A DNA stretch of 64,000 nucleotides from Escherichia coli (GTDB lineage: Bacteria > Pseudomonadota > Gammaproteobacteria > Enterobacterales > Enterobacteriaceae): the NCBI RefSeq assembly GCF_024502345.1, contig NZ_JALDNN010000001.1; one strand, given 5' to 3'. The translations under genes and the position numbers were made by a program. This document shows positions 3,416 through 61,637 of the stretch, one piece after another (within the stretch, counting starts at the first letter, position 1; each line of letters opens with the position of its first letter). The notes beneath the pieces are model-generated. The model saw nothing but the letters and a program-made list of their open reading frames with translations. It had not been told where the DNA came from and ran no database searches.

Positions 3416-4971
<1,556 letters not shown>

Positions 4972-5059
4972 AATTTCATCGGGTCCGAATTTTCGGACCT
5001 TTTCTCCGCTTTTCCTTGCTGTCATCTACACTTAGAAAAAAACCAGTAAGGAAACATTT

Positions 5060-5971: not shown

Positions 5972-6081
5972 GCTGATGGTTGAACGGATATTTTGCCAGG
6001 TGGCAGGGGAATTTCAACTATTACCTTTGTGACTATCGCAGAGAAAACAAACGGCACGACACAGCTGTCGTACCGTTATTG

Positions 6082-20144: not shown

Positions 20145-20220
20145 GCCCGGATAGCTCAGTCGGTAGAGCAGGGGATTGAAAATCCCCGTGTCCTTGGTTC
20201 GATTCCGAGTCCGGGCACCA
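20145..20220 (+). tRNA. pheU: tRNA-Phe (GAA anticodon)
   Basis: 76-nt GCCCGGATAGCTCAGTCGGTAGAGCAGGGGATTGAAAATCCCCGTGTCCTTGGTTCGATTCCGAGTCCGGGCACCA with anticodon loop TTGAAAA and 3-prime CCA; position after yjdC corresponds to pheU. Confidence 0.97.
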
Positions 20221-21071
20221 ATATTCATAAGGCCTCGCTGCAAAGCGGGGCTTTTTCCTTTTCTGGCTACGGTAGATTTCTGGTCGTTGCGGCACGTTAT
20301 TTGTTTGCTGGATTTCTCGCCATTTTCGCAGTTGTTCGTTACTTTTAGACACCTCAACATCCTTTGATGTACCTTTTCCTAACCTCACAGCTACGGTCTT
20401 TCTACGGTCCTCTACGATTCCTTTCTCTCAGAGCATTCATAATAAAGTAGAAAATACGGGGAAAACGGGGGAATTATCATTTCGCCCTAATCCGCAGGTC
20501 TTAACGTGATTTTGTCGCGGGGAATAAGGTGGGGAAATCCCCAATAGCAAGCGGGGAAATCTGGCAGCATACCCCCTCCACCATTCACATGGGGATCTTC
20601 ACCAGTCCGTCCACCTACAACAAGCTCTTCTTGCCCTTTCACTTCTTACCGTTTTCAGAATCCCCCGTTCTCCACGCCATCATAAAATGATTTATCCGTA
20701 AGCTTAACGTAATGGACTGTTGAACCTGAGTGTCCGCTGTGAGCGAAAAGCGGAACTTCTCACATAGGTAATGAAGCGTTTCCTAACGTCAGGGTGTACT
20801 AATCAACGAAGAGCAGGTCAGAGGACTCGAACCGCTTTCCTCTTCCATCTACGTAGAATTCCAAGAATTTATGTGCTTTCCAGTTACAATTTAGCCATGC
20901 TAAGTTAGAAAAAGCATTGAGTACCTTAGGATTGTATCGATGATACTCTAAGGATCTTGGAGGCTTGTGAGGCGTAAGGTTCAAAGCCAATAGTTTATTA
21001 ATAGTCACACAAGTGGCTCTATTTTTCGCCTACAAACCTATATTTTTCATACAAATAAAAGAAGTGTATTT

Positions 21072-22490
21072 ATGAATACTCAGCAAATTAAGGTTGGCAG
21101 TGTACCTGAAATTATTGAGCTATTACCAAACTCTAGCGAGCAGGCTGATTCTCATCCTTTCATCCTATCGGCAAACAGTGCATGGGGTGAACAGGGAGCA
21201 GAAATATCAATAGAGAGATTACGCCAAAATATCGAGCCTTGGCTAACAGCTCTCTTCCAATCCGAACATTTAAATTTATTGATAGGTGCGGGTTTAAGCA
21301 CGTCTATTCAAATATCGGCTACAGATTCACCTCCAGCTGGAATGGGTTGGATCAGCGATCTAGCCGTATGTAAAAGTGAAATAGATGCATTTTCTACTCT
21401 GGCTGCCAAAGCTGCAGGTCGCGATAACGGAAATATAGAAGATCAAATTAGAGCTATTAATGAACTTATTAAAGGGCTTGAAATTCTGACAGTGTTGAAT
21501 ACCCCTCAACCTGAAAATCCTCCAGCTCCTCATGCTGCTTATAGAAATCTAAAAACGGATTTAGAAATACTCAAGGGAGAGCTTTCTCGCTGCCTAGGTG
21601 AGTTTTCAAGATCTGTGAGTGCCGGAGAATACTTGATTAAAACTGCTGAACCAAAGCGTAAAGAGGAAACTTTCAACTATCTAGTTAGTTTCTTGATGAG
21701 CTTTGCAAGTAGGACCGCTACTCGCGATAGGTTGCATATTTTTACAACAAACTATGATCGCATTATTGAAGTAGGTGCTGAGCTTGCTGGTTTGAGACTT
21801 ATAGATCGCTTTGTAGGAAGTATCGCTCCAGTGTTTCGATCTTCAAGATTGGAGGTTGATTATCACTATAATCCTCCAGGAATTCGTGGCGAACCAAGAT
21901 ATTTAGAAGGCGTAGCGCGTTTTACTAAGCTTCATGGATCCCTTGATTGGCATGAACAAAATAGCGCGATTAGGCGCTTTGGTTTACCTTTTGGAGCACG
22001 TTCTGTTGAACCTTTTTTAGAAGCTGAAGGCCATCAAAGCAACAGCTTTGAACAACTTATGATTTACCCTAACTCAGTAAAAGATAGAGAAACTGCCGAG
22101 TACCCTTATGTTGAGCTATTTCGAGATCTAGCCGCAGCAACTAGCCGCCCAAATAGCACATTAGTCACCTATGGCTATAGCTTTGGTGATGAGCATATCA
22201 ACAGGGTAATTGAAGACATGCTTACAGTGCCTTCGACTCATGTAGTCATAATTGCCTTCGGAGATCCGCTTGGAAGAATCATAAATTTCATTAATAAGAG
22301 TGGAAGAAAAGCACAGATCACCCTATTAATGGGAGACCATTTAGGAGACCTCAAGACTTTAGTTGATAACTATTTACCTAAACCAGCTATTGATAAAGCA
22401 TCAATAAAAATGACTGAATTGCTTAAGCAAAGAGGATTTATCCAGCCCAAAGAATTAGGTAATTCAACTGGCTCCGAGGTATCACAATGA
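21072..22490 (+). CDS. SIR2-like NADase component of a SIR2-HerA anti-phage system
   Basis: 472-aa ORF with SIR2-family motifs GAGLS (in LLIGAGLSTS), TTNYD (in HIFTTNYDRII) and HGS (in TKLHGSLDW); translationally coupled to the downstream HerA-like gene. Confidence 0.8.
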   Translation: MNTQQIKVGSVPEIIELLPNSSEQADSHPFILSANSAWGEQGAEISIERLRQNIEPWLTALFQSEHLNLLIGAGLSTSIQISATDSPPAGMGWISDLAVCKSEIDAFSTLAAKAAGRDNGNIEDQIRAINELIKGLEILTVLNTPQPENPPAPHAAYRNLKTDLEILKGELSRCLGEFSRSVSAGEYLIKTAEPKRKEETFNYLVSFLMSFASRTATRDRLHIFTTNYDRIIEVGAELAGLRLIDRFVGSIAPVFRSSRLEVDYHYNPPGIRGEPRYLEGVARFTKLHGSLDWHEQNSAIRRFGLPFGARSVEPFLEAEGHQSNSFEQLMIYPNSVKDRETAEYPYVELFRDLAAATSRPNSTLVTYGYSFGDEHINRVIEDMLTVPSTHVVIIAFGDPLGRIINFINKSGRKAQITLLMGDHLGDLKTLVDNYLPKPAIDKASIKMTELLKQRGFIQPKELGNSTGSEVSQ

Positions 22491-24520
22491 GTTACTTACC
22501 AATAGAAAGATTAGAACAATTAAGAATTGGATCTGTTGGATTTGTATCACCTAATGAAATTAGAGTTTCTTTAGAGATTGACTCCCCTGATTCAGTGTCA
22601 CTTCAAGGCGGTTCCCCCCGCAATTTTCCTCGAATAAATAGTTATGTACTGATCAGTAGCGATGATGGATTTCTCGTCGGACAGGTTGAATGGATTGCCG
22701 TAGAACACTCTCCATACCCCAAAAGAAGAGGCTTACAAGATTTTGGCTTGATAGATCTTCCTTTTCCACTTAAAAAGCTCAGTATCAATCCCGTTGGTAC
22801 TTTGAGAGTCGATAGAAAAAACGAAGATTACAAGTTCACAAGAGGAACAGATGCTTTTCCCTCGGTTGGTGACTCCGTGCTCCTGCCTACTGACCGGCAA
22901 TTAAAATCAATAATAGAATCAGGTGACAATAGAAGAGTAAAAATAGGGGACAGCCCCCTAGCTAACAATGCGGAAATAAAAGTGGACCCTGATAGGCTTT
23001 TTGGACGACATTTAGCTGTTTTGGGCAATACAGGTAGTGGTAAATCATGCTCGGTTGCGGGGTTAATTCAATGGTCTTTAGATGCTGTTTTACAACAGGG
23101 ACAGATTCCAAATGCTCGGTTCATAATACTTGATCCAAATGGAGAATACAGTAGGGCATTCGGCCCAGAATCAAAATACAAGGGTAAGCTATTACGTGTA
23201 GAAGCTAACACTGGTGCTGAAGAGATAGATCTTAAAGTTCCGTCATGGTTATGGAATAGCTCTGAGTGGGGTGCTTTCACTCAAGCGAGTTCAAAAGTTC
23301 AACTTCCTTTACTACGCCGAGCTTTGAGGGCGATGAGAAATGATGTTTTATCAGAAGATGATGTGACAATCCAAGCGAAACACTTCTGCGGTATCCTACT
23401 CGTATCCATACGACAATTATCAAGCCAAGGCCAGATATATGTGAATGGCGGCCATGCCAAAGGTTTCGTTGATAGTTTAACGTCTTGGAATAATAGCCTG
23501 TCCACATTAAACGACAAAATCGATAACAAACCTTTCGATAATCTAATAAACACGATGAATGTGTATCTTTCCTCTCGTATAGGAATAAAATGGCCTGAAA
23601 AACCTGAAGTTTCAGATACTGATCAGTTGATTAATGAATTAAAAAATGCATATGAAACGCTTGGAGGTGATGAACAAGGACTTCTTCCAAAAAGTGAAGA
23701 TTCGCCTATTCGTTTTAAAGGGGATGATTTTGTCGCATACCTAGAAGCTCTAGCTCAAGAGACAGGCACAGAGCAATTCGTTGAATTCCTTTTGACTCGT
23801 ATTCGAACAATGCTAGGTGACACCCGTATAAGTGCAGTAACAAATGATTCGGAACAGCCTATCAGTTTAACTAATTGGTTAGACACTTTTCTCGGTAGAG
23901 ATGGACAAGGTTCCATAACTGTTATCGATTTATCGCTAGTCCCTAATGAAATAATACATTTGGTAACTGCTGTAATTTCCAGAGTAACTTTTGAAGCATT
24001 ACAACGTTATCGAAGACTTAAGGGGAAACCACTACCAACAGTTATGGTTGCAGAAGAAGCGCATACATTTATTAAACGCTACAAAGAAGATAGTGAGGGT
24101 CAGTCAGTCTCTGACGTATGCTGCAAAGTGTTTGAAAAGATCGCACGTGAAGGCAGGAAATTTGGGTTAGGTCTTGTAGTTTCTTCCCAACGACCCTCAG
24201 AGCTATCTCCGACTGTGTTATCTCAATGTAATACTTTTTTGTTGCACAGGATTAGTAATGATAGAGATCAAGAGCAAGTCCATAGACTTGTTCCCGATAA
24301 CATGAGGGGGTTGTTGAGGGAGTTGCCATCGCTACCATCTCGGCATGCCATTCTACTAGGATGGGCTTCTGAACTTCCGGTTTTAGTTAGAATGAAAGAG
24401 CTTACTGAAAAACAAAGACCACAATCTGACGATCCCGATTTTTGGGATGTGTGGTCTAACACTACAGAAGAGCCTCGCGAAGTTAATTGGCAACCAATAG
24501 CTGATGATTGGCAAAGTTAA
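22487..24520 (+). CDS. HerA-like FtsK/HerA-family ATPase of the SIR2-HerA system
   Basis: 677-aa ORF with Walker A GNTGSGKS, Walker B MVAEEAH and SSQRPSEL region; start overlaps the SIR2 stop (ATGA). Confidence 0.8.
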   Translation: MSYLPIERLEQLRIGSVGFVSPNEIRVSLEIDSPDSVSLQGGSPRNFPRINSYVLISSDDGFLVGQVEWIAVEHSPYPKRRGLQDFGLIDLPFPLKKLSINPVGTLRVDRKNEDYKFTRGTDAFPSVGDSVLLPTDRQLKSIIESGDNRRVKIGDSPLANNAEIKVDPDRLFGRHLAVLGNTGSGKSCSVAGLIQWSLDAVLQQGQIPNARFIILDPNGEYSRAFGPESKYKGKLLRVEANTGAEEIDLKVPSWLWNSSEWGAFTQASSKVQLPLLRRALRAMRNDVLSEDDVTIQAKHFCGILLVSIRQLSSQGQIYVNGGHAKGFVDSLTSWNNSLSTLNDKIDNKPFDNLINTMNVYLSSRIGIKWPEKPEVSDTDQLINELKNAYETLGGDEQGLLPKSEDSPIRFKGDDFVAYLEALAQETGTEQFVEFLLTRIRTMLGDTRISAVTNDSEQPISLTNWLDTFLGRDGQGSITVIDLSLVPNEIIHLVTAVISRVTFEALQRYRRLKGKPLPTVMVAEEAHTFIKRYKEDSEGQSVSDVCCKVFEKIAREGRKFGLGLVVSSQRPSELSPTVLSQCNTFLLHRISNDRDQEQVHRLVPDNMRGLLRELPSLPSRHAILLGWASELPVLVRMKELTEKQRPQSDDPDFWDVWSNTTEEPREVNWQPIADDWQS

Positions 24521-24941
24521 TTAACTTAACTAATTTTTAGTAGTGTTATAAGTAGTGGCTTATATCTGACATGACAGTTTAGGTTAGTAGTTTCAATCTA
24601 ACAGTAAGTGTCCACGGTGACGTTTTCATACTCAAATCTCCTGAAATGTGGGAGATTTGAGTATGGTTGTCCCTTATGAGCGAGGAGCGGAAGTTCTGCT
24701 TTAAGTGTATCAAACCCTCCAGCAAAGATGTTCTTGAATGTAATGCCATAATTTCCCTAACATTCCAGCACAAATCAATTAACTCTCAGTCCATAGTGTA
24801 TTTTACTTAAATTAAAATCAAATACTCTAGGAATTAAAATAACAAGATCACTTGCGATTATGCTATTTTAAATTAATATTTTTGTTTTTACTGGGGAACC
24901 TTCAAAACACGGAGCCAGATTTCTTCGTAGCTACCCTGTTG

Positions 24942-25766
24942 CTAGGGTTTCAAGTATTCCCCTAAAGGAAAGAAATTTTTTGACAACTTTTGGGATTCAG
25001 CAATTTTAACCAAATAAATATAGAATCCCAACAGAGCACTGTTCTCGCTTTCCCCCCTCGAATAGTGAACATGCCCAGGCACCTTCCGGATGAGGAAACC
25101 ATTATTTTTTACCAAATAATACCCTCTATCTAAAATTGTAATTACATCAGGCATATCATCTAAATCGATATTATTTCCAGTCATGTAATTAAACAGCGAA
25201 TCTCGTAAGGTACTTTCCTCTGGACCTTGGAAGGCTAGTAGTAAGAATGGTGTTTTTCTCAAGGTTGCACACATCCCTGAGATTTCCTCTACTAATTGCA
25301 CTGTATTTTGGGGAATATTTTCTTTCATAAAATAACCATCGTCAATACCGATTGGATTGATTCTTACCAAACCTTTTGACCTAACGCAAGCATCTAAGGT
25401 TGTCTTAAGGTTTGAAGCTCCTTCGGTCATTGAGCCAGTGTTTAATGAAGATTTACATTCAATTAACGCTAAAGCTGAATCGACAGGGACCATACACTGA
25501 TCTTTATCATAACTAAGTTTTAAAGAATGTTTCGAGTATATGATAATATCCATCTGACTTGAGAGATTATCCTTAGAGTCAAAAACCTGTCCTGATGTAA
25601 TATCTAAATTACTAGGGAGATTTGCTTTTAAAAATTCCCTTATTACAATTTCTCTAGCACTTCCTTTGCTACTCCCGTTCGTCGTTATGGATGACAAATT
25701 AAATGCTGAAACCAAAGATGCCGTATGGTTTTTTAAGTGTTTCTGGATTAATTTCATAAAGCTCAT
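24942..25766 (-). CDS. hypothetical protein, possible PD-(D/E)xK-like nuclease
   Basis: 274-aa ORF in AT-rich DNA convergent with herA; candidate motifs E (GSAREIVI), D (MDIIIYS) and ExK (ALIECKS); no family assigned with confidence. Confidence 0.5.
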   Translation of the reverse strand: MSFMKLIQKHLKNHTASLVSAFNLSSITTNGSSKGSAREIVIREFLKANLPSNLDITSGQVFDSKDNLSSQMDIIIYSKHSLKLSYDKDQCMVPVDSALALIECKSSLNTGSMTEGASNLKTTLDACVRSKGLVRINPIGIDDGYFMKENIPQNTVQLVEEISGMCATLRKTPFLLLAFQGPEESTLRDSLFNYMTGNNIDLDDMPDVITILDRGYYLVKNNGFLIRKVPGHVHYSRGESENSALLGFYIYLVKIAESQKLSKNFFPLGEYLKP

Positions 25767-26194
25767 TCCATTTTAATTTATCTACATCGCTTAAAGGCAA
25801 ATGATGCCACCGGCTACCAATTAAAAATTATCTCAACCTGAGAGATTTTTCCAGACTCCAAACGAAAATAAAAAACTACTCGTCACGTCCCTCCTGGCAC
25901 ATAGCCGACACCAAAACCAGCAACATATGGACAACGGTCCCTGCCCTGATGGCAGGTAATTGTATCAGACTTAAACACATATTATTTCTGTGAACTCCCC
26001 CCAACGGCAGTCCTTTCCTCTGAAGACCAGAACCAGACCGTAAAGCCTGCTCTTTCTGCATTTCCCGTATTAATTCATACCATGTGGCACCAGCATTCCC
26101 TTCGCCACACCAGAAAATCAATTCCCCAATAAAAAAGTGCCGTGCCGGGGATGGGTCAACCCTGACGTTCTTTACACCAGTCACAGGAGGTTAT

Positions 26195-27379
26195 ATGTCC
26201 ACCCCCAAACGCTTCCGTTTTACTAATCAGCTCATTAAATCCCTGCCCCCTAACACATCCGATGCACGCAGTACCGATGCCGAATACAGCGACACCGAGA
26301 TTTCCGGCCTCAAGTGTCTGGTCAGCAGAAGAGAAGGTCGTAAAAAGTTTTTGCTACGCTACCTTTATCATGGACGAAAACGCGCCATCGCCATTGGTCA
26401 CTGGCCTGAAGTGGACGTCAATCTTGCTCGTCAGATTGCCATAGAACACAAACGTTCCCTTGCCACCGGCACTGACCCTAAGCAGGAGCGTGAAAACAAG
26501 AGAATGGAGCTGACGTTCGATGAACTCTTTAATCAGCATTATCTGCCATGGGCAAAATCCGCTAAACGCAGTTGGGGAAAGGATGTTCAGCGCTACCGCG
26601 ATCATATCCGTCCCGCCATTGGTCAGAGGCTGCTGAGCGATATCACACCAGCGAGCATTCTGCGCCTTCAGCAGACGTTAAGTACTTCCCTGTCAGCAGC
26701 TACCTGTAACCGTGTCATCGTACTCATTAAAGCCGTCTTTACATGGGCCGGAAGGCAAAGCATGACCTCTGTCCATCCGGCAAGGGTGGTACAGCTTCTC
26801 AGGGAGAACAACGCCCGACAGCGCTATTTCACCGAGGACGAAATTCGTCGTATTTTTCTCTCCGCCGATAACGATACCAGCCCCGTCGCGGCCCGCTATG
26901 TCAAACTGTTGTTACTGACCGGCCTTCGTCGTGATGAGCTGCGTCTGGCTAAGTGGGAGCATGTTGACCCGGTTAAACGCACCCTGTGGCTCCCGGAAAC
27001 CAAGAATGGCTATGGGCGGATTGTTCACCTTAACTCACTGGCGATGGACGTAATCAGAACGCTGCCAACGCAGCGGGGAAATCCGTGGTTGTTTATCGGT
27101 AAAAAACAAGGAATGCCGCTGAATAACCCCGTTAAAGCCTTTCAGCGTATCGTTCGTCGGGCGGGAATTTTCGACCAGGAAGTGTGTATTCATACCTGCC
27201 GCCATTCGGTTGCCGCCCTCATCGTGTCCTACGGCGGAACACTGTATGACGTTCAGGCTCAACTGGGGCACCGCAGCAGTCAGTCTTCACAACGTTATGC
27301 GCATCTTCACCCTCAGCGCTTACAAAACACCAGTCAGTTACTGGCGGAAAGGATAACGGCTCAGCTACCGTCCTTGTGA
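26195..27379 (+). CDS. tyrosine-type site-specific integrase
   Basis: 394-aa ORF from ATG 26195 preceded by AGGAGG; catalytic boxes TGLRRDELRLAKWEHVD and HTCRHSVAAL...LGHRSSQSSQRYAHL (R, HxxR, Y). Confidence 0.85.
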   Translation: MSTPKRFRFTNQLIKSLPPNTSDARSTDAEYSDTEISGLKCLVSRREGRKKFLLRYLYHGRKRAIAIGHWPEVDVNLARQIAIEHKRSLATGTDPKQERENKRMELTFDELFNQHYLPWAKSAKRSWGKDVQRYRDHIRPAIGQRLLSDITPASILRLQQTLSTSLSAATCNRVIVLIKAVFTWAGRQSMTSVHPARVVQLLRENNARQRYFTEDEIRRIFLSADNDTSPVAARYVKLLLLTGLRRDELRLAKWEHVDPVKRTLWLPETKNGYGRIVHLNSLAMDVIRTLPTQRGNPWLFIGKKQGMPLNNPVKAFQRIVRRAGIFDQEVCIHTCRHSVAALIVSYGGTLYDVQAQLGHRSSQSSQRYAHLHPQRLQNTSQLLAERITAQLPSL

Positions 27380-37393: not shown

Positions 37394-39271
37394 ATGAGGT
37401 TTATGATGGCTGGCCAGTATGAAAAAGCAATAACGATAAAACAAGCGATAGATTCAATTAATTTACGCCACTATCTTCTGCCTGCAATTCAGAGGAAGTT
37501 CGTCTGGAGCAGCAGTCAAATATGTTTGCTGTTTGATTCCATCATGCGAGACTACCCGATAAACTCTTTCATGATGTGGGATATCCGTAGTGCCAGTATT
37601 AAAAATGATTACAAATTCTATGAATTCCTGAAAGAATACTGTCAGCGATTTAATGAAGAAAACCCCTGCGTAGCAACAAATGCTGGATTTCATGATTTCA
37701 AGGCGGTGATTGATGGTCAGCAGCGTCTCACATCATTATATATTGGATTGTGTGGAACGTATGCGTATAAACAGCCCCGGGTGTGGTGGCCTTCGGCACA
37801 GGATGATCGCATCCTGCCGCCCAGAAAGCTTTACGTCGATTTAACAGCGCCACTTAATTCAGACGATGAGCTCATGATGAAGTATAACTTCAGGTTCCTG
37901 ACCGACAAGCAATACGCTGATTCACTTACAGACAACAAGCATCACTGGTTCTGCCTGCACGAAATATTCAAATACGAGCAACATGATTCGCCTGATGATA
38001 TTTTATTTAACGTTGTCGTACCAGAACTCGAAAAAAGAGGACTCATTTCCAGTGAATTTTCCAGAAAAACATTACTGAGACTTTATACAAAAATAAGAAC
38101 TGAGAACATCATCCACTACTTCAATGAGAGTAGTCAGGATATTGACCATGTGCTGGATGTTTTCATACGCACGAACAGCGGGGGGACAAAACTTGAGTTC
38201 TCCGACTTACTGATGTCAATAGCGGTAGCGCACTGGCAGGGTGATTTCAGAAGAGAACTGGATGAACTGACAAAAAACATTTATCAGAATAATGAAATGG
38301 GGTTTTATATTGAAAGAGACTGGTTCTTAAAAACCAGCCTGATGCTTATTGACTCTGACGTCCGGTTCAAAGTAAAAAACTTCACTTCAGAGGAGGTCGG
38401 TAAGATACAACAACAATGGTCTGAAATAAAATCCTGCATCAAGGAGACTTTTATTCTTATCAGGCGATTCGGCATCAATCCACAGTCTTTGATATCTAAA
38501 AATGCAGTCATTCCTGTGGTCTACTGGCTTTACAAAAAGCAAACCAGTGGACATCCATTATATACAACGATTAACCTCCTGAATAAAAACCACAATGAAC
38601 GCTCAGTAATTAGCCAGTGGTTTTACATGGTACTTCTGAAAGGGATCTTTGGAAGCCAGGCAGATGCGCTACTCACGAGTATCAGAGATGTAATGAAAAA
38701 TAGTCTTTCAGATATTCACTTTCCTCTTGAAAAGATTATTGACAGATATAAAGGCTCGAATAAAGACCTCAGATTTGACGACGAATACATCGAAAGCCTT
38801 CTCAATATCAGATATGGCGAAGGTCGTTGCCGCGCACTATTGCATCTTCTGTTCCCTGAAATGAATCCGACCGAGGTGTTTCATATTGATCACCTTCACC
38901 CAAGAAATCACTTCTCAAAGAAATATCTTGAAAAATTAGATTATGTTGCGAACTCACCAGAGAACCTCAGCTTTTATGAAAACCCGGAACACTGGGACAC
39001 CATACCTAATCTTCATTTACTGAATCATTCTCAGAATATAAGTAAACAGGATACTTCCCTGAAACAATGGCTATCTCAGCCATCAAACAACTATTCGCCA
39101 TCAATGCTGTTAGTTTCAGATGAAAATATTGAGTTCAGTCGCTTCCCGGAATTCTACAATGAACGAAGAAACGCCCTGAAGCAAAGACTACTGAATCGGG
39201 TATTTCTTACAACAAAAATAGATTCATCACCATCCACAATCGATACGGATGAAGAAATTCTCACCGACTGA
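37394..39271 (+). CDS. GmrSD-family type IV restriction endonuclease (DUF262 + DUF1524)
   Basis: N-terminal DUF262 hallmark DGQQR (in KAVIDGQQRLTSLYIG) and C-terminal His-Me finger-like HIDHLHPRNH; likely start at ATG 37406 after GAGG. Confidence 0.8.
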   Translation: MRFMMAGQYEKAITIKQAIDSINLRHYLLPAIQRKFVWSSSQICLLFDSIMRDYPINSFMMWDIRSASIKNDYKFYEFLKEYCQRFNEENPCVATNAGFHDFKAVIDGQQRLTSLYIGLCGTYAYKQPRVWWPSAQDDRILPPRKLYVDLTAPLNSDDELMMKYNFRFLTDKQYADSLTDNKHHWFCLHEIFKYEQHDSPDDILFNVVVPELEKRGLISSEFSRKTLLRLYTKIRTENIIHYFNESSQDIDHVLDVFIRTNSGGTKLEFSDLLMSIAVAHWQGDFRRELDELTKNIYQNNEMGFYIERDWFLKTSLMLIDSDVRFKVKNFTSEEVGKIQQQWSEIKSCIKETFILIRRFGINPQSLISKNAVIPVVYWLYKKQTSGHPLYTTINLLNKNHNERSVISQWFYMVLLKGIFGSQADALLTSIRDVMKNSLSDIHFPLEKIIDRYKGSNKDLRFDDEYIESLLNIRYGEGRCRALLHLLFPEMNPTEVFHIDHLHPRNHFSKKYLEKLDYVANSPENLSFYENPEHWDTIPNLHLLNHSQNISKQDTSLKQWLSQPSNNYSPSMLLVSDENIEFSRFPEFYNERRNALKQRLLNRVFLTTKIDSSPSTIDTDEEILTD

Positions 39272-39474: not shown

Positions 39475-41031
39475 ATGACAAGCCTTCAGCAGCGTGCAGA
39501 GCTACACCGTCAAATCTGGGCCATTGCCAATGATGTCAGAGGCTCCGTAGATGGGTGGGATTTTAAACAGTATGTACTCGGTGCACTTTTCTACCGCTTC
39601 ATCAGTGAGAATTTTTCCAGCTACATGGAAGCAGGGGATGAGAGCATACATTATGCAGCACTTGATGACAGCATCATTACCGATGACATCAAAGACGATG
39701 CCATCAGGACTAAAGGCTATTTCATCTACCCGAGCCAGCTGTTCTGCAACGTTGCCGCTAAAGCGAACACCAACGACAGGCTGAATGCTGATTTAAACAG
39801 TATCTTCGTCGCTATAGAAAGCTCTGCCTACGGCTACCCGTCAGAGGCCGACATCAAAGGCCTGTTCGCCGATTTCGATACGACCAGCAATCGACTGGGG
39901 AACACAGTTAAAGACAAAAACAGCCGTCTTGCCGCGGTTCTGAAAGGGGTTGAAGGGTTAAAACTTGGTGACTTCAACGAACATCAGATTGACCTGTTCG
40001 GTGATGCCTATGAGTTCCTGATTTCTAACTATGCCGCAAATGCCGGTAAGTCAGGCGGTGAGTTCTTTACACCGCAGCACGTCTCCAAGCTGATTGCACA
40101 ACTGGCTATGCACGGGCAGACCAGCGTTAACAAAATCTACGACCCGGCAGCGGGTTCCGGCTCACTGTTGTTGCAGGCGAAAAAACAGTTTGATAACCAC
40201 ATCATCGAAGAAGGCTTTTTCGGTCAGGAAATCAACCATACGACCTATAACCTGGCGCGTATGAACATGTTTTTGCACAATATCAACTACGACAAGTTTG
40301 ATATCAAGCTGGGTAATACACTGACTGAGCCGCACTTCAGAGATGAAAAACCGTTTGACGCCATCGTATCTAATCCACCGTATTCGGTGAAATGGATTGG
40401 CAGCGATGACCCGACGCTGATTAACGATGAACGTTTTGCCCCGGCTGGCGTTCTGGCCCCCAAATCCAAAGCTGACTTTGCGTTTGTATTACATGCACTG
40501 AACTATCTTTCTGCCAAAGGTCGTGCTGCGATTGTCTGCTTCCCGGGTATTTTTTACCGTGGCGGCGCAGAGCAGAAAATCCGTCAATATCTGGTCGACA
40601 ATAACTATGTCGAAACCGTGATTTCACTGGCACCGAACCTGTTCTTTGGCACCACCATTGCCGTCAATATTCTGGTGCTGTCTAAACATAAAACGGATAC
40701 CAAAGTTCAGTTTATTGATGCCAGCGAATTATTCAAAAAAGAGACTAACAACAATATCCTGACCGATGCCCATATCGAACAGATTATGCAGGTATTTGCC
40801 AGCAAGGAAGATGTTGCTCATCTGGCGAAATCTGTCGCGTTTGAGACCGTTGTCGCTAATGACTATAACCTGTCGGTGAGCTGCTATGTAGAAGCGAAAG
40901 ATAACCGCGAAATTATCAATATTGCTGAGCTAAATGCAGAGCTTAAAACTACGGTTAGCAAAATCGACCAGTTGCGTAAAGATATTGATGCGATTGTGGC
41001 TGAAATTGAAGGCTGCGAGGTGCAGAAATGA
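39475..41031 (+). CDS. hsdM: type I restriction-modification system methyltransferase subunit
   Basis: 518-aa ORF with SAM-binding [11 protein letters not shown] and catalytic NPPY (IVSNPPYS) motifs. Confidence 0.9.
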
Positions 41032-42200
41032 GCGAGTTGAGTTATCTGGAAAAATTGCTGGATGGGGTTGAGGTTGAGTGGAAATCATTGGGAGATGTTG
41101 TAAATTTTCAGCGCGGAAGGCGGCTCGTAAAATCTCAGTTAGAAACCAGAGGTAAATATGCGGTTTACCAAAACAGCATGACACCACTCGGTTACTATCA
41201 TGAGTATAATGTCGCAGCTCAATCTTCGTTCATTATCTGTGCGGGTGCAGCCGGTGAAATTGGTTATAGCGAAAATGAATTTTGGGCTGCCGACGATGTT
41301 CATTTCGCAATCACACCAGAATATATAAATGACAGGTTTTTGTTTCATTTTTTGTTGACGCAAAAGAATAAAATTTCAGGACAAGTACGCCGTGCCAGTA
41401 TTCCGCGTCTCTCAAAGTCAGTAATTGAAAAACTTGAATTCCCCATCCCCTGCCCGGATAATCCGGAAAAGTCCCTTGCCATCCAGTCTGAAATCGTTCG
41501 GATTCTGGATAAATTTACTGCACTTACCGCTGAGCTTACCGCTGAGCTTAACATGCGTAAAAAACAGTACAACTACTATCGCGACCAGTTGCTGAGTTTT
41601 GATGAGGGTGAGGTTGAGTGGAAGGCTTTGGAGGAAGTCTCAACTTTTGCTAATGGAAAGGGGCATGAAAAAGACATATCAGAAGACGGTAAATATATTG
41701 TTGTAAACTCTAAGTTTATATCTACCAATGGCGAAGTCGCCAAGTTATCAAACAAACAGCTATGCCCTCTTTTTAAAGACGATATTCTTTTGGTTATGAG
41801 TGACCTGCCCAATGGCAAAGCACTTTCAAAAACATTTATTGTTGATGAAGATCATAAATACACTTTAAACCAACGTATTGGTGGAATTACAGTAAAAAAC
41901 AGTAATGAATTACTCCCTAAGTTTTTGCACTATTTTTTAAATAGAACCCCGCAATTGCTGAAACATGACAATGGTGTTGATCAAACAAATTTGCGTAAAG
42001 GTCAAATACTTGAAGTAAAAATACCAATAATTTCACTCATCAAACAAGTTCAGATCGTTGAAACTCTTGATAAATTCGATACTTACACTAAGTCGATTTC
42101 AGAAGGCCTCCCGCGCGAAATCGAGCTGCGCCATAAACAGTACGAGTACTATCGTGATTTATTGTTCAGCTTCCCGAGACCAGAAACCGCCAGCAACTGA
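41028..42200 (+). CDS. hsdS: type I restriction-modification system specificity subunit
   Basis: 390-aa ORF with two target-recognition halves and repeated conserved segments (EVEWKSL...[15 protein letters not shown]; EVEWKAL...[15 protein letters not shown]); start overlaps the hsdM stop. Confidence 0.9.
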
Positions 42201-42316
42201 CGGACCATTGATACCGGCAGGGTTTGTTCTCACCCGCCCGGTATCAGGCTTTAAGAATGCCGGAAGATGCTTCTGATACCCTTCCGGAATTTGCCAGATG
42301 ACGCACAGGATGCACC

Positions 42317-45300
42317 ATGACACAACAGATACACACCATTGCTGAATCCAATAACTTTATCGTCCTTGATAAATACACCAAAGTTCTGGAGAACGGCGAC
42401 AGCTACCAGAGCGAATCGGATCTTGAGCGGGAACTGATTCAGGACCTTCTGAATCAGGGCTATGAATTTATATCCGTTAAGTCACCGACAGCGATGCTGG
42501 CGAATGCACGGGACCAGCTTCAGCATCTTAATGGTGTGGTGTTTAACGAAAGTGAATGGCGGCGCTTCGCAGAGCAGTATCTGGACAGCCCCAGTGACAG
42601 CAGCCTGGACAAAACTCGTAAAATCCATATCGACTATATCTGTGATTTCACGTTTGATGACGGTCGTCTGGAAAACATCTATCTGATAGATAAAAAGAAC
42701 CTGCTGCGCAATAAGGTGCAGGTCATTCAGCAGTTTGAACAGACCGGCTCACACGCTAACCGTTATGACGTCACCATTCTGGTTAACGGCCTGCCACTGG
42801 TGCAAATCGAACTCAAAAAGCGCGGCGTGGCTATTCGTGAAGCCTTTAACCAGATACACCGTTACAGCAAGGAAAGCTTTAACAGCGACAACTCCCTGTT
42901 TAAATACCTGCAACTGTTTGTGATATCTAACGGAACCGATACCCGGTACTTTGCCAGTACCACTAAGCGGGATAAAAACAGCTTTGATTTCACCATGAAC
43001 TGGGCGAAGTCGGATAACACTCTGATTAAGGACCTGAAGGACTTTACCGCCACCTTCTTCCAGAAACATACCCTGCTGAATGTTCTGTTTAATTACAGCG
43101 TGTTTGACAGCAGCCAGACTCTGCTCGTCATGCGCCCCTATCAGATTGCCGCCACTGAGCGAATCCTCTGGAAAATTAACAGCTCATTTAAAGCGAAGAA
43201 TTGGTCAAAACCCGAAAGCGGCGGGTTTATCTGGCATACCACCGGGTCAGGCAAAACCCTGACCAGTTTTAAGGCTGCACGACTGGCAACCGAACTGGAC
43301 TTTATAGACAAAGTCTTCTTCGTGGTCGACAGAAAAGACCTTGATTACCAGACAATGAAGGAGTATCAGCGCTTTTCTCCGGACAGCGTCAACGGTTCGG
43401 ATAATACAGCAGGCCTCAGAAGAAACCTGGATAAGGACGATAACAAAATCATCGTCACAACCATTCAGAAACTCAATAACCTGATGAAAGCCGAAGCTGA
43501 CCTGCCCGTCTATCAGCAGCAGGTAGTGTTTATCTTTGATGAGTGTCACCGCAGCCAGTTTGGTGAGGCCCAGAAAAACCTCAAAAAGAAATTCAGACGC
43601 TTTTATCAGTTTGGTTTTACCGGTACGCCTATTTTCCCGGAAAATGCACTGGGGGCAGAAACCACAACCAGCGTGTTCGGGCGTGAGTTACATTCTTACG
43701 TCATTACTGATGCGATTCGTGATGAAAAAGTACTGAAGTTTAAGGTGGACTATAACGATGTCCGCCCACAGTTTAAGTCTCTTGAAACGGAAACAGACGA
43801 GAAAAAACTCAGCGCGGCTGAAAACCAACAGGCATTTTTGCACCCCCTGCGTATCCAGGAAATAACGCAATACATTCTCAATAACTTCCGGCAGAAAACA
43901 CACCGAACCTTCCCGGGAGCTAAGGGCTTTAACGCCATGTTAGCAGTTAGCAGCGTGGACGCGGCGAAAGCTTATTACACGACGTTTAAAATGCTACAGG
44001 AAGAAGCAGAGAAGAAATCTGGCAGCTATAAATGCCTTCGGGTGGCAACCATCTTCTCCTTTGCTGCAAATGAAGAGCAAAGCGCCATTGGTGATATTAC
44101 TGACGAAAGCTTTGATACCAGTGCAATGAACAGCAGCGCGAAGGAATTCCTGGATTCAGCCATTGATGACTATAACAATCACTTTAAAACCAATTTCAGC
44201 ACCGACAGTAACGGTTTCCAGAACTACTACCGCAATTTAGCTCAACGAGTGAAAAATCAGGATATTGACCTTCTCATCGTGGTGGGAATGTTCTTGACTG
44301 GCTTTGATGCCCCGACGCTTAACACTCTTTTCGTTGACAAAAACCTCCGTTATCACGGCCTGATGCAGGCATTTTCCCGCACAAACCGTATCTATGATGC
44401 CACCAAAACCTTCGGCAATATCGTGACTTTCAGGGATCTGGAGCGTCCGACCATTGATGCCATCACACTATTTGGCGACAAAAACACCAAGAATGTGGTG
44501 CTGGAAAAAAGCTACGAAGAGTACATGCAGGGCTTTACCGATGCGGCAACCGGTGAGGCTAAACGAGGTTTTATGGCTGTTGTTTCGGAGCTGGAGCAGC
44601 GCTTCCCTGACCCTGCCAGTATCGACAGTGAAAAAGAGAAAAAAGCCTTCGTCAAACTGTTTGGTGAATATCTGCGGGCAGAAAACATCCTGCAAAACTA
44701 TGATGAATTTGCCACGCTGAAAGCCCTGCAGAAGGTTGATATTAGTGACCCGGAAGCGGTAGAAACCTTTAAAGCAGAGCACTATGTGGATGATGAAAAA
44801 TTTGCTGAATTACAAACCATTCGTCTCCCGGCAGAACGTAAAGTTCAGGACTATCGCTCAGCATACAATGATATCCGGGACTGGCAGCGACGCGAAAAAG
44901 CATCAAACGACAGGGATAAATCAACCACAGACTGGGATGACGTGGTGTTTGAAATTGACCTGCTGAAGTCGCAGGAAATTAACCTGGATTACATCCTTGG
45001 TCTGATTTTCGACCACAATCGTCAGAAAAAAGGTAAAGAAGCCCTGACTGAAGAGGTCAGACGCTTAATCCGCTCAAGTCTGGGCAACCGTGCCAAAGAA
45101 GGTCTGATTGTTGACTTTATTCAGCAAACTAACCTTGATGACATGCCGGACAAGGCCAGTATCATTGATGCATTCTTTACCTATGCTCAGCGTGAACAGC
45201 AACGGGAAGCAGAGGCGTTGATTAAGGAAGAAAACCTCAATGAAGAGGCTGCAAGGCGCTATATCCGCACATCACTAAAACGGGAGTATGCCACCGAAAA

Positions 45301-45433
45301 TGGGACGGAGCTAAATGAGACGCTACCAAAGCTCAGTCCGCTGAATCCTCAGTACAAAACGAAAAAGCAGACTGTATTCCAGAAAATTGGGGCATTTATC
45401 GAAAAATTTAAAGGGGTTGGAGGACACCTCTAG
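42317..45433 (+). CDS. hsdR: type I restriction enzyme R subunit (helicase/endonuclease)
   Basis: 1038-aa ORF with helicase motifs RPYQ, TGSGKT and DECH (IFDECHRSQ). Confidence 0.9.
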
Positions 45434-46516: not shown

Positions 46517-47782
46517 ATGGCACTGACTGACGCAAAAATCCGGGCTGCAAAGCCCACTGACAAGGCTTATAAACTCACTGACGGGGCCGGCATGTTCCTG
46601 CTGGTTCATCCTAATGGTTCCCGTTACTGGCGTCTCCGTTATCGTATTCTGGGTAAGGAGAAAACCCTGGCACTTGGTGTGTATCCGGAAGTTTCTCTCT
46701 CCGAAGCTCGTACAAAACGGGATGAGGCCCGAAAACTGATTTCGGAGGGGGTTGACCCTTGCGAACAGAAAAGAGCTAAAAAAGTAGTCCCTGATTTACA
46801 ACTCTCTTTTGAACATATTGCACGACGCTGGCATGCCAGTAATAAACAATGGGCACAATCACACAGCGATAAAGTACTCAAAAGCCTCGAGACACACGTT
46901 TTCCCCTTTATCGGCAACCGGGATATCACAACACTCAGTACCCCGGACCTGCTTATCCCTGTTCGTGCTGCAGAAGCTAAACAAATTTATGAAATCGCCA
47001 GTCGTCTGCAGCAAAGAATATCTGCTGTAATGCGTTATGCCGTACAGTCTGGCATCATCAGATATAACCCGGCTCTGGATATGGCTGGTGCATTGACCAC
47101 GGTAAAACGCCAGCATCGCCCTGCTCTGGATCTTTCACGCCTGCCTGAACTTCTGTCGCGTATTGACGGTTATAAAGGCCAGCCTGTCACCCGACTGGCA
47201 GTTATGCTGAATTTACTGGTTTTTATTCGTTCCAGTGAACTCAGATATGCCCGCTGGTCTGAAATTGATATTGACAATGCCATGTGGACTATTCCAGCCG
47301 AACGCGAACCTCTGCCAGGCGTAAAATTTTCATACCGGGGCTCCAAGATGCGAACACCACATCTTGTGCCACTCAGCCAACAGGCTGTAGCCATACTGGC
47401 AGAACTTCAGACATGGGCAGGTGAAAATGGTCTGATCTTTACGGGAGCACATGACCCACGTAAACCAATCAGTGAAAACACCGTAAATAAAGCCCTGAGG
47501 GTTATGGGGTATGACACAACCCAGGATGTCTGTGGTCATGGATTCCGGGCGATGGCATGTAGTGCATTAATAGAATCAGGTTTGTGGTCCCGCGATGCTG
47601 TGGAACGCCAGATGAGCCATCAGGAGCGTAATGGTGTACGTGCTGCGTATATCCATAAAGCCGAACATCTGGAAGAACGTCGACTTATGCTACAGTGGTG
47701 GGCCGATTTTCTGGATGCAAACAGAGAAAGATTTATCAGTCCATTTGAATATGCAAAGATTAATAATCCATTAAAACAATAA
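46517..47782 (+). CDS. P4-type tyrosine integrase
   Basis: 421-aa ORF MALTDAKIRAAKPTDKAYKLTDGAGMFLLVHPNGSRYWRLRYR (P4-like arm-binding N-terminus) and catalytic HGFRAMA...RAAYIH; 197 bp after the tRNA-derived repeat. Confidence 0.9.
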   Translation: MALTDAKIRAAKPTDKAYKLTDGAGMFLLVHPNGSRYWRLRYRILGKEKTLALGVYPEVSLSEARTKRDEARKLISEGVDPCEQKRAKKVVPDLQLSFEHIARRWHASNKQWAQSHSDKVLKSLETHVFPFIGNRDITTLSTPDLLIPVRAAEAKQIYEIASRLQQRISAVMRYAVQSGIIRYNPALDMAGALTTVKRQHRPALDLSRLPELLSRIDGYKGQPVTRLAVMLNLLVFIRSSELRYARWSEIDIDNAMWTIPAEREPLPGVKFSYRGSKMRTPHLVPLSQQAVAILAELQTWAGENGLIFTGAHDPRKPISENTVNKALRVMGYDTTQDVCGHGFRAMACSALIESGLWSRDAVERQMSHQERNGVRAAYIHKAEHLEERRLMLQWWADFLDANRERFISPFEYAKINNPLKQ

Positions 47783-48103: not shown

Positions 48104-49603
48104 TTACCTGTGGTCCGGAAGAATAAGTGGCTGCGGTTTCAGACTGTCTGCCGGCACATTTTTCTCTCCGTTAAAAACCATAACGGGTTCATTATCTTCG
48201 TCTGTCAGCGGATTGAATGGCGGTATATTTTCGGTACGAATACCGGTCAGCCACTGAAAAATGCCTGCGAAATTACGGGCACTGATTTTCCTGCTGACGG
48301 ACTGATGAGACGTGATGTCACTGGCGGTAATAATCAGGGGAACGCTGTAGCCCCCCTGCACATGACCATCATGATGAACAGGATTAGCACTGTCGCTGAC
48401 CGACAGCCCATGGTCAGAAAAGTAAAGCATTGCAAAGTGACGGGAATGCCGGCGAAGGATACCATCAAGCTGATCGAGAAAGTTATCCAGTTTACTGATG
48501 CTGGCGAGGTAACAGGCAATCTTTCGGGGATACTGCTCCAGGTAATAATTCGGCCAGGAGTTAAGTCGGTCACACGGATTCGGATGAGAGCCAATCATGT
48601 GCAGGAAAATCACCTTCGGCGAGGATTTATCCGCCAGCGCACGTTCTGTTTCCTGTAACAACAACATGTCATCCGTTTTACGGGAAGCGAAGCTGCCTTT
48701 CTTGAGGAAAACGGTATGCTCCGCATCAGAAGCAATAACAGAGATGCGTGTGTCATGCTCTCCCAGTTTTCCCTGATTGGATATCCACCATGTGCTGTAT
48801 CCTGCTTTTGCTGCCAGCGCCACCACGTTGTTGCCGGAGTCAGGGTTCTGCTCATAGTCATAAATCAGTGTCCGGCTCAGGGAAGGTACGGTACTGGCTG
48901 CTGCCGATGTATAGCCGTCAATAAATAAACCGGGAGCCGTATTCAGCCATGGTGTGGTTGGCACGGGATAGCCATATACCGACATATAATCCCTGCGCAC
49001 ACTCTCACCAGTAACGATAACAATCGTGTCATACAACGGTGTTCCCGGCAGGATTTTCCAGTTGTCAGCCCCGTGCTGACTCAGTTGTTTATAACGCTGC
49101 ATTTCACGCAATGTGTCAGTTGTTCCCACAACAATTCCTTTAACCATCCGCAACGGCCAGCTGTTTACAGAGCATAATACGAACAGCAGCAGTGCCAGCC
49201 AGTTACGGTGACCGCGGTGGTGTGTCCGCCAGAAAATCACCATGAATACCAGAATCGCGGCACTGACCAGAAAATGATAAACAGGAATCATCCCGGTAAA
49301 CTCTGCAGCCTCATCAGCCGTGGTCTGCAGCAACGCGACAATAAAACTGTTGTTGATTTTACCGTACGTCATACCCGCAGGCGCATACAGTGCACAACAG
49401 AACAGAAATAACAGCGTTGTAATGGATGTGAGGGTATTTCTGTGTGCAAGGAGAAGAAGGAGAAACAGAAGCAGCACATTTCCTGTGGCATTCTTCTCAG
49501 TGTATCCGCATGCAATTGTGATTATCACAGAAATAACAAAAAAGAATAAAAACAATAAAATCCGGGGTGTGTCGCCCGGACAAAACAGTTTTCTGATATT
49601 CAT
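48104..49603 (-). CDS. phosphoethanolamine-transferase-like membrane protein (sulfatase family, EptA-like)
   Basis: 499-aa ORF with N-terminal transmembrane region and sulfatase-domain motifs LHMIGSHPNP and YFSDHGLS. Confidence 0.7.
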   Translation of the reverse strand: MNIRKLFCPGDTPRILLFLFFFVISVIITIACGYTEKNATGNVLLLFLLLLLAHRNTLTSITTLLFLFCCALYAPAGMTYGKINNSFIVALLQTTADEAAEFTGMIPVYHFLVSAAILVFMVIFWRTHHRGHRNWLALLLFVLCSVNSWPLRMVKGIVVGTTDTLREMQRYKQLSQHGADNWKILPGTPLYDTIVIVTGESVRRDYMSVYGYPVPTTPWLNTAPGLFIDGYTSAAASTVPSLSRTLIYDYEQNPDSGNNVVALAAKAGYSTWWISNQGKLGEHDTRISVIASDAEHTVFLKKGSFASRKTDDMLLLQETERALADKSSPKVIFLHMIGSHPNPCDRLNSWPNYYLEQYPRKIACYLASISKLDNFLDQLDGILRRHSRHFAMLYFSDHGLSVSDSANPVHHDGHVQGGYSVPLIITASDITSHQSVSRKISARNFAGIFQWLTGIRTENIPPFNPLTDEDNEPVMVFNGEKNVPADSLKPQPLILPDHR

Positions 49604-60890: not shown

Positions 60891-61253
60891 ATGTCCAGCA
60901 CATCAGATTGCGGCAACATACAAGACTGTTCCGCGACAGATCATGTCGCGGAGCCAGATCTATCAATGCTCTCGCAAAACGACATTGGGCAACTTTCCGA
61001 GATTTTCCATCTACTGGGGGACCAGTCAAGACTACGAATCCTGCTTTACTGTATGCGTGGTTCGGTCTCTGTAGGCGACATTGCTGAGTCGCTCCAGTTA
61101 TCACAATCTCTGGTCAGTCATCATCTGAGGTTGTTACGAAGTGCAAGGCTTGTTCGCGGAGAGAGAAAGGGTAAGTACATATTTTATAGCATAATGGATC
61201 ACCATGTAAGTCATGTTCTTCAGGACATGGTATTTCACATAGCTGAAGAATAA
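60891..61253 (+). CDS. ArsR/SmtB-family metalloregulatory repressor
   Basis: 120-aa ORF with HTH segment GDIAESLQLSQSLVSHHLRLLRSARLV. Confidence 0.75.
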   Translation: MSSTSDCGNIQDCSATDHVAEPDLSMLSQNDIGQLSEIFHLLGDQSRLRILLYCMRGSVSVGDIAESLQLSQSLVSHHLRLLRSARLVRGERKGKYIFYSIMDHHVSHVLQDMVFHIAEE

Positions 61254-61637
61254 CCCGAATGAATTTTGATAAGTAGAGCTTGTGTAATTCCAACTCACCT
61301 TAGTTTTTCATTACTTTGGTGAGTTGTTTCATCATTAATTTATTAAAACCTTAATAATTAACCTTTTAATAATGAAACCTGCCCCCTTCCCTTGTATGTA
61401 ATAAATACCTGATGGTTCACTATCACCAGATAAAGCGAAGTGAGCAGGCCACCTCATGAAGGAGAAACCTTGCTTTGCAAGCTTATTGAATAGCCACGGA
61501 TAATCTAGTTTGTCTGCTTCGTGCCAAAAGCGGACATTGCTACATCACAATGCGTTATGGTCAACATCAGAATGCAGCCCTTGTGTTGTGACGTGTAGTC
61601 TGGCCTAAACGCAGTTGCACTACATTACCTCGTGGGG

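Follow-up and report, generated by a model that had tools for sequence, protein, structure and literature searches.

Probable recombination sites at an exchangeable, defence-carrying slot in the pheU island of Escherichia coli

Introduction

The sites of the Cre/lox and FLP/FRT systems are made of inverted arms around a short asymmetric spacer, within which the strands are exchanged, and in the design of recombinase-mediated cassette exchange the cargo is placed between two site classes that differ only in the spacer. The IntI-type integrase of integrons has ~320 amino acids, XerC/XerD sites flank the resistance and toxin-antitoxin modules (pdif modules) of Acinetobacter plasmids, and in the insertion sequences (IS) IS10 and IS50 a hairpin hides the ribosome-binding site of the transposase, giving protection from read-through expression. 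Inverted repeats are annotated in the Z region of P2-like coliphages (GenBank AJ512676–AJ512683), in records which we take to come from Nilsson, Karlsson and Haggard-Ljungquist (2004), whose title reportedly invokes site-specific recombination. A review cites the same paper for inverted repeats allowing the site-specific exchange of fun (PMC8987985). The present analysis concerns a window of 64,000 nucleotides of Escherichia coli (the whole stretch analysed, contig NZ_JALDNN010000001.1), in which a SIR2-HerA defence operon in an island at the tRNA-Phe gene pheU is flanked by two related motifs of ~30 bp. These motifs are probably core recombination sites of a type called B here, and the movement of cassettes between such sites by a small tyrosine recombinase is the best explanation of the whole.

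The sites fall into two classes, A and B, which form arrays together with a gene for a recombinase of 200 amino acids. As in integrons, this gene lies beside a primary site, short cassettes of one to a few genes are bounded by sites and arranged in an array, homology breaks at the site, and defence genes are among the cargo; integron cassettes carrying defence genes are described in a preprint (bioRxiv 10.1101/2024.07.02.601686). Unlike the integron integrase, the recombinase is only 200 amino acids long and scores 15.9 bits with the model TIGR02249 (cut-off 265). Its presumed sites are 24-bp duplex-type sites of 9-6-9 form in two classes, as opposed to the folded attC sites of 57–141 nt, and the cassettes stand in either orientation and on both sides of the recombinase gene, while those of integrons are co-oriented and promoterless. 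An identity as an integron was rejected because the IntI model failed and the sites are not attC-like, and the likeness is one of similar working.

The arms-spacer form and the two classes differing in the spacer are shared with Cre/lox and FLP/FRT, from which the system differs in its 9-bp arms, its 6-bp spacer and an enzyme without the N-terminal core-binding domain of Cre and FLP. By the same analogy, A and B are putative mutually incompatible classes. With pdif modules it has in common that accessory modules in many replicon backgrounds are bounded by short sites with a 6-bp spacer; however, pdif uses the host XerCD and a dif-like sequence, whereas the present sites show no relationship to dif, and the arrays are accompanied by a small, dedicated recombinase. 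The FimB/FimE invertases likewise have ~200 amino acids and little beyond the catalytic domain, but the models NF007371 and NF007370 give 25.5 and 18.2 bits against cut-offs of 222 and 221, and no invertible promoter segment was seen.

The variable slot and its sites

Motif 1 occupies positions 20731–20761 and motif 2 positions 24668–24699. The first-pass annotation had recognized both as flanking the operon and placed them 1–5 nt too high (~20736–20766 and ~24672–24702). The core that it gave for the two, TGTCC-n4-TGAGCGA-n3-GCGGAA-n-TTCT, is exact: it is found at these two places only, no third place with up to three mismatches exists on either strand of the window, and it occurs in none of 100 dinucleotide shuffles. 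A repeat search pairs the motifs as a 41-nt direct repeat of 73% identity, 3937 bp apart. Both contain a site of 9-6-9 arm-spacer-arm form with the class B spacer GAGCGA, and B2 is the B site that in other loci normally adjoins the recombinase gene. From left to right, and followed by the island integrase, the slot contains:

20732–20755, plus strand: site B1 (motif 1), GTCCGCTGT GAGCGA AAAGCGGAA, the left boundary of the variable slot
21072–24520, plus strand: SIR2-HerA defence operon, cargo of cassette 1 (SIR2 21072–22490, HerA 22487–24520)
24611–24629, minus strand: remnant of the recombinase gene, its first ~6 codons, with the ATG as complement of 24627–24629
24627–24665, minus strand: perfect 15-9-15 hairpin, with the start codon ATG of the recombinase gene and its GGAG Shine-Dalgarno sequence in the 3' arm
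24669–24692, plus strand: site B2 (motif 2), GTCCCTTAT GAGCGA GGAGCGGAA, the junction between cassettes 1 and 2
24942–25766, minus strand: DUF6602 protein with a PD-(D/E)xK, NucC-like nuclease domain (Pfam, PADLOC), cargo of cassette 2
25886–25909, plus strand: degenerate type A site (A'), CGTCCCTCC TGGCAC ATAGCCGAC, the right boundary of the variable slot

Cassette 1 is assigned by the Pfam domains SIR2_2 and DUF87/HerA and by PADLOC (SIR2, E = 2.7e-154; HerA, E = 2e-252), and cassette 2 by Pfam DUF6602 (E = 6.9e-21) and by the PADLOC model PD_DExK (E = 5.8e-27) together with NucC models.

At the same position, other E. coli strains carry other genes, as the proposed comparison of strains brought out: six pheU/pheV islands hold six cargos, which are SIR2-HerA, an anti-phage dCTP deaminase, a DUF3825 protein, a LeoA-type dynamin operon, a restriction endonuclease and an ABC-three-component system. 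Likeness among the six islands extends only through the left arm of B1 into the first letters of its spacer (GTCCGCTGTGAG; GTCCGCTGT GAG), after which they diverge with the cargo. Homology to one of them, L003, is 95% in the left arm of the island up to 20758 and resumes at 25888, inside A'; the sequence from TGGCAC ATAGCCG onward is common to the window, L114, L003 and L115, and the left arm of A' varies with the cargo. Different cargos in the same island segment indicate a swappable slot, occupied mostly by defence genes. The suggestion that the two motifs bound cassettes, and are likely to be sites of recombination in such a slot, is borne out, with homology breaking inside motif 1. Motif 2 is not the right edge of the slot but an internal junction, the right edge being the degenerate sister site A'. 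In this arrangement the left arm of B1 and the right arm of A' would belong to the island backbone, and everything between them would be exchangeable cargo.

SIR2-HerA in this arrangement is found in 2 of 5426 complete E. coli genomes. Homologues with 85% identity lie in a degenerate P2-like prophage remnant by ihfA (L004), where the operon is preceded by a degenerate B site and HerA is followed, 100 nt further on, by a perfect A site, and in the traN hotspot of an integrative and conjugative element (ICE; L006), where no A or B sites were seen around the operon.

It had also been considered that the motifs are merely diverged copies of the enterobacterial repetitive intergenic consensus (ERIC) or other dispersed intergenic repeats unrelated to cargo boundaries. 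ERIC is an imperfect palindrome of ~126 bp containing the ERIC1R and ERIC2 primer sequences, and the heptamer GTGAGCG, common to the motifs and the ERIC2 primer region, is the sole resemblance. Neither classical primer 22-mer is matched in the window with up to three mismatches, and the motif, far from being scattered, is present in 1–6 copies per E. coli genome (median 1) and at homology breakpoints, so that this explanation has a negligible probability. A duplicated tRNA att site was rejected as the identity of the motifs, since their sequence is unlike the 3' end of tRNA-Phe; Rfam covariance models found nothing but tRNA-Phe between 19800 and 26400 (E ≤ 1).

The site family

Sites were catalogued in 24 sequences, namely the window and 23 related loci, mostly enterobacterial, which yielded 64 unique sites. 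Each site has 24 bp, with 9-bp inverted arms (GTCCGCTnn / nnAGCGGAm) around a 6-bp spacer, and inverted arms with a short asymmetric spacer are what characterizes a core-type site of tyrosine recombinases (lox/FRT/dif-like). The two classes are:

Class A, 28 unique sites: consensus GTCCGCTcc TGGCAC agAGCGGAC
Class B, 36 unique sites: consensus GTCCGcTnT GAGCGA ggAGCGGAa

In the catalogue loci the density of sites is 23 per 100 kb, ~30-fold above the 0.76 of shuffled sequences, and 76 of the 77 sites are antiparallel to the recombinase gene. Related loci of Enterobacterales contain arrays of co-oriented B-cassette-A units, joined by junctions in which an A site and a B site are separated by 18 nt (66 bp in all); in 13 of 15 such junctions, the A and B sites start 42 nt apart. 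One A..B junction per array holds the gene of the 200-residue tyrosine recombinase. Sites in the six arrays mapped against open reading frames are intergenic, except for two low-scoring matches in L024. An array in Enterobacter sp. (L022) reads A, gene, B-A, gene, B-A, two genes, B-A, Lamassu lmuBA, B, recombinase, A, gene, and cassettes point both ways and lie to either side of the recombinase gene. Beyond the enterobacteria the arms are retained and the spacers differ, being chiefly CGACCC and TGGCCG, the former both adjoining the recombinase gene and at distal sites.

Members of the family are also seen elsewhere. The Qin prophage of K-12 MG1655 (L019) has orphan B and A sites bracketing flxA (5003–5026 and 5994–6017), and a Qin-like prophage of strain 38 (L017) has, by hokD and rem, an intact recombinase gene and other cassettes. 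Strain ET745 (L020), with four B-like sites in its genome, has an A-B junction at 4961–5026 between genes for a helix-turn-helix protein and a 3'-5' exonuclease, adjoining a cluster that resembles an operon of a type II cyclic-oligonucleotide-based anti-phage signalling system (nucleotidyltransferase, ThiF/E1-like, JAB/MPN and HNH proteins).

The inverted repeats of the P2 Z region belong to the same site family. In P2-EC30 (AJ512676.1), the "left inverted repeat" contains an A site at 92–115 and the right repeat_region a B site at 1942–1965, and the 75-nt A+B junction element from L016 matches the former. Comparison of P2-like phages shows homology up to the A site of Z/fun and again from the B site onward. 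The Z/fun repeats are thus of one sequence family with the motifs of the window and likewise lie at cargo boundaries, while here the boundaries are those of a slot in a tRNA-Phe island, beside the remnant of a dedicated recombinase gene. A 75-nt stretch of Stx1a- and Stx2c-converting (Shiga toxin) phages (H184–H192) is 76% identical to the left repeat region of P2-EC30 (query 34–108) and overlaps the left arm and spacer of its A site, which suggests that related sites are also present in these phages. The motif family was accordingly noted as repeats in 2004, and what the present comparison would add is the tie to a recombinase and the two-site cassette architecture. Searches of the literature by site-sequence text, keywords and database names gave, the content of Nilsson et al. 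(2004) excepted, no account of the recombinase link, of two spacer classes A and B, of multi-cassette arrays or of a spread beyond Enterobacterales.

The recombinase gene and its remnant

The segment 24611–24696 of the window is 94–97% identical to the first 19 nt and the upstream region of a 603-bp gene which is annotated in 917 E. coli genomes under the generic name "site-specific integrase"; the position of the gene relative to the remnant is seen in L016–L018. The window retains 19 nt of this gene, which in related loci sits inside an A..B junction. Relative to intact arrays, ~0.6 kb is absent after HerA, which would hold an A site and nearly the whole recombinase gene.

The conserved module has ~710 bp, and the DNA on either side of it differs between loci, with homology stopping inside the motif. 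In comparisons with E. coli loci, homology ends at query positions 123–137, corresponding to 24682–24696 of the window, that is, at the spacer end or in the right arm of B2. Of 5426 E. coli genomes, 773 carry the full module of 713 bp, in some cases on a plasmid. Among 600 candidate stretches taken from genomes that represent species of Gamma- and Betaproteobacteria, at least 546 were found to hold relatives with 60–98% identity.

The protein of 200 residues, exemplified by WP_001305361.1 of ATCC 25922, has the Pfam Phage_integrase catalytic domain (residues 35–184) as its only domain, and its catalytic R, HxxR, H and Y, out of the R-K-H-R-H/W-Y set of tyrosine recombinases, align with those of XerD and XerA, in line with the proposal that it would be the enzyme acting on the sites. 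Among the simple tyrosine recombinases, IntKX is an ICE-associated subgroup (PMC8138268), and the protein belongs to a different group. The K-12 gene ydfW/intK was rejected as a remnant of the small recombinase, with no similarity by tblastn.

Breakpoints and hybrid sites

The identical recombinase is found in a genomic island, a lambdoid prophage and a region resembling a conjugative element, and pairwise homology between these contexts ends on A or B sites. Exchange in the spacer that gives hybrid sites was found once between B sites and once between A sites. In the first case, L101 carries 5.7 kb between two B sites, and L105 is without this segment and has a single hybrid site, GTCCGTTGT-GAGCGA-GGAGCGGA, which matches one L101 site in its left arm and flank and the other in its right arm and flank, a composition which places the crossover within GAGCGA. 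In the second case, the difference between the Hafnia locus (L021) and the Enterobacter locus (L022) amounts to 2.6 kb, or two cassettes. The A site of L021 at 2003 is an exact hybrid of two L022 A sites: on its left side, arm and flank match those of the L022 site at 4203, and on its right side those of the L022 site at 1607.

The same pair of loci shows a further difference (L022 12925–14411 versus L021 10712–10735), an insertion of 1.49 kb exactly at the boundary between the spacer and the right arm of a B site. The ends of the insertion are poor sites (GATATAGTC; spacer GGGCGT), and it may reflect the use of secondary sites or a different element that targets B sites.

In the proposed mechanism, the recombinase would pair two sites of the same class and exchange strands within the spacer. 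With direct repeats, recombination of A with A or of B with B would release cassettes as circles or take such circles up. If two DNA molecules recombined once A x A and once B x B, the content lying between the sites would be swapped.

It is also conceivable that the motifs are hairpin "linkers", serving as transcription or RNA-processing signals, and that the cargo is swapped by RecA-dependent or microhomology recombination with no dedicated recombinase. The arms are indeed short inverted repeats able to form stem-loops, those of B2 are partly paired in the RNA fold of the region, sites are found in many genomes and phages that have no recombinase gene, and the junction 24610/24611 is not site-specific. 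However, the motifs were not called as intrinsic terminators (GC-rich stem and T run) in a scan of 20200–26300, in which the hairpin was not called either; no promoter was called at the motifs, and the terminator and promoter counts of the region are at the level of shuffled sequences. The crossovers of the hybrid sites lie in a 6-bp spacer between arms that are not identical, unlike homologous exchange, and linkers would not explain the strictly uniform orientation, the A-B spacing fixed at 42 nt, the constant embedding with a conserved recombinase gene and the spacer classes that differ between the enterobacterial and other recombinase lineages. Linkers are therefore considered unlikely.

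A further alternative accepts the motifs as true recombination sites and assigns them to another enzyme, such as the P4-type island integrase, the host XerCD or a phage integrase, the 200-residue gene being a passenger. In its favour, the slot directly adjoins the P4-type integrase (26195–27379), and no core-binding domain is recognisable in the 200-residue protein, where Pfam covers residues 35–184 only. Yet the same sites occur at P2 Z/fun, in lambdoid prophages, namely K-12 Qin, the Qin-like prophage and L102, and in an island of ATCC 25922, and the sampled surroundings contain no such P4-type integrase, while the recombinase gene is always in the A..B junction and in one orientation. The site arms are also unlike the E. 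coli dif site, and this alternative appears very improbable.

Several observations weigh against the preferred reading, in which the small recombinase moves cassettes between A and B sites. Clean hybrid-site events number only two, the ends of the 1.49-kb insertion at a B site are non-canonical, and arms of 7–9 bp could serve as microhomology without a dedicated enzyme. The link between recombinase and sites appears as one of association; sites are also spread more widely than the gene, with ~2070 E. coli genomes having B-like sites and ~900 the recombinase, and the cargo of the cassettes is not made of defence genes alone. In the locus itself, the SIR2-HerA unit is without the A site expected at its 3' end and the deletion junction 24610/24611 is not at a site, so that ordinary illegitimate recombination also shaped the locus. 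No recombinase gene is present anywhere in the 64-kb window, and in the near-identical genome cS33a the 5' region of the module is represented only by this remnant, in a single place. Since no recombinase gene is left in the window, the sites here would probably need enzyme provided in trans to be active, and they may be fossils.

The hairpin at the start of the recombinase gene

The perfect 15-bp inverted repeat reported downstream of the operon is real, with arms at 24627–24641 and 24651–24665 and a 9-nt loop (24628–24666 in the first-pass annotation). It is not a separate feature, being the ribosome-binding site and start-codon region of the tyrosine recombinase gene that is otherwise deleted here: CAT at 24627–24629 is the complement of the start codon, and on the minus strand the 3' arm reads GGAGATTTGAGTATG, made of the Shine-Dalgarno sequence, an 8-nt spacer and ATG, with the 5' arm as its exact complement. 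As minus-strand RNA, the region folds with −29.2 kcal/mol (z = −4.7 relative to shuffles), and the arms of B2 are partly paired in this fold.

An equivalent hairpin with other arm sequences lies upstream of the recombinase gene in 76 distinct loci of many genera. The mean fold z-score is −2.15, as compared with −0.34 for control gene starts of the same loci (p ~2e-18, which is overstated since the sequences are related), and the Shine-Dalgarno region is paired at 77% of positions versus 54% in the controls. The Shine-Dalgarno region pairs with upstream sequence, of varied composition, in most recombinase loci that were sampled from other genera. The pairing of the ribosome-binding site with upstream sequence is like that of the IS10 and IS50 hairpins, and most likely the hairpin acts on translation by hiding the ribosome-binding site and the start codon, for example from read-through transcripts.

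For the hairpin alone, a role as DNA and not in the control of mRNA translation, be it as a cruciform or as a binding or accessory site of the recombinase, is somewhat unlikely, though by no means negligible. The perfect 15-bp arms with a 9-bp spacer have a lox-like form, and a test for a signal specific to sense RNA was negative (L021–L100, positions −45 to +6): the antisense strand folds better in 52 of the 76 loci and the sense strand in 23, by a mean of 1.5 kcal/mol in favour of antisense. Against this role, the Shine-Dalgarno sequence is in the 3' arm in most of the loci sampled from other genera despite differing arm sequences, the AUG is paired in 54 of 77 sequences, and homology between loci never breaks inside the palindrome, which indicates that the palindrome is not a crossover site.

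The pheU island and its surroundings

The window contains the E. coli pheU locus, with the order dsbD, dicD, tRNA-Phe as in E. coli genomes. The island integrated downstream of tRNA-Phe consists of a non-coding arm of ~510 bp, the variable segment, a P4-type integrase gene, an Arm-DNA-binding gene, a DUF927 gene and a second recombinase gene. Features outside the slot proper are:

20145–20220, plus strand: tRNA-Phe (pheU), integration target of the island (ARAGORN; Rfam tRNA, 68 bits; synteny)
20221–20731, no strand assigned: conserved non-coding left arm of the island, with CTACGGTC-type direct repeats at ~20390–20420 and GGGGAAA repeats at ~20459–20555
20694–20717, plus strand: tentative decayed type A site read from the sequence, ATCCGTAAG CTTAAC GTAATGGAC
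26195–27379, plus strand: P4-type island integrase of 394 amino acids with an arm-binding domain (Pfam Arm-DNA-bind_3, Phage_int_M and Phage_integrase; annotated in RefSeq in L001–L003)

The P4-type integrase is the conserved right flank of the slot and is distinct from the enzyme proposed for the motifs. The segment 20483–20760 is present in 65 of the 5426 E. coli genomes, one copy each, and is unannotated. In the arm after tRNA-Phe, there are three CTACGGTC/CTACGATT direct repeats at 20390–20420 and several GGGGAAA-type repeats at 20459–20555, which the P4-type integrase or an excisionase may use as arm-type binding sites. The candidate A site at 20694–20717 is weak, with 10 of 14 arm positions and 2 of 6 spacer positions, and lies 14 nt before B1, as compared with the usual 18 nt; it is listed because a B site in an array is normally preceded by an A site whose start lies 42 nt before its own.

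In the leader of SIR2 (20800–20850, minus strand), a fragment resembles the T-arm and 3' end of a tRNA (GCGGTTCGAGTCCTCTGACCTGCTC), with no ARAGORN call and no likeness to tRNA-Phe; a stretch with weaker similarity to it is found in the SIR2 leader of the P2-like prophage remnant (L004/L005). This fragment may be the remnant of an old att site. Just upstream of the island integrase, the conserved region has an open reading frame for 102 amino acids (25876–26184, minus strand) with no Pfam hit, which is unannotated in the RefSeq relatives. In the near-identical genomes cS33a (L001, 11572–12540) and fM51a (H1), IS903B stands in place of most of the DUF6602 cassette, and fM51a also has ISEc23, indicating that the slot has been reshaped by IS elements as well.

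A well-formed type A site, GTCCGCTTT TGGCAC GAAGCAGAC, lies on the minus strand at 61512–61535, ~36 kb from the slot and in the opposite orientation. It is intergenic, between an ArsR-family gene (60891–61253) and an open reading frame of unknown function with an AAA_13 gene, and no partner B site was seen 42 nt away. A cation-efflux gene beside it was compared with a cassette gene of L022, and a relationship was rejected at just 26% identity. Between 27000 and 64000, the remainder of the island holds further defence and resistance genes, with a GmrSD-like gene (37394–39271), a type I restriction-modification system with an EcoR124-type R subunit (39475–45433), a second P4-type integrase (46517–47782), an EptA-like phosphoethanolamine transferase (48104–49603, minus strand), two heavy-metal P-type ATPases and one cation-efflux gene.

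Significance

For the swapping of defence hotspots, Rousset et al. (2022) speculated on cos ends and homologous recombination (PMC9122126), and a 2026 preprint on P2/P4 hotspots described very rapid swapping, with near-identical systems in unrelated mobile elements and no mechanism named (10.64898/2026.02.27.708500). These hotspot papers treat the swapping mechanism as open, with mention of neither the repeats nor a recombinase. The sites described here bound the P2 Z/fun hotspot, the slot of a tRNA-Phe island and the multi-cassette arrays of several genera, and a conserved small recombinase travels along with them, which gives a candidate, testable mechanism for content swaps at bacterial defence hotspots. 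A more far-reaching view, which can be put forward only tentatively, is that the 200-residue recombinase with its A and B sites constitutes a cassette platform of Gamma- and Betaproteobacteria that is separate from integrons and seemingly undescribed as a system, in which the insertion, excision and swapping of cargo between a B and an A site, among phages, prophages, ICEs, plasmids and tRNA islands, would drive the turnover of P2 Z/fun and of pheU/pheV. If the proposed mechanism is true, the A and B sites would make the flow of defence genes between phages and chromosomes predictable and would be markers by which to find new accessory and defence cassettes, and a compact natural recombinase with two site classes may be of use in genome engineering.

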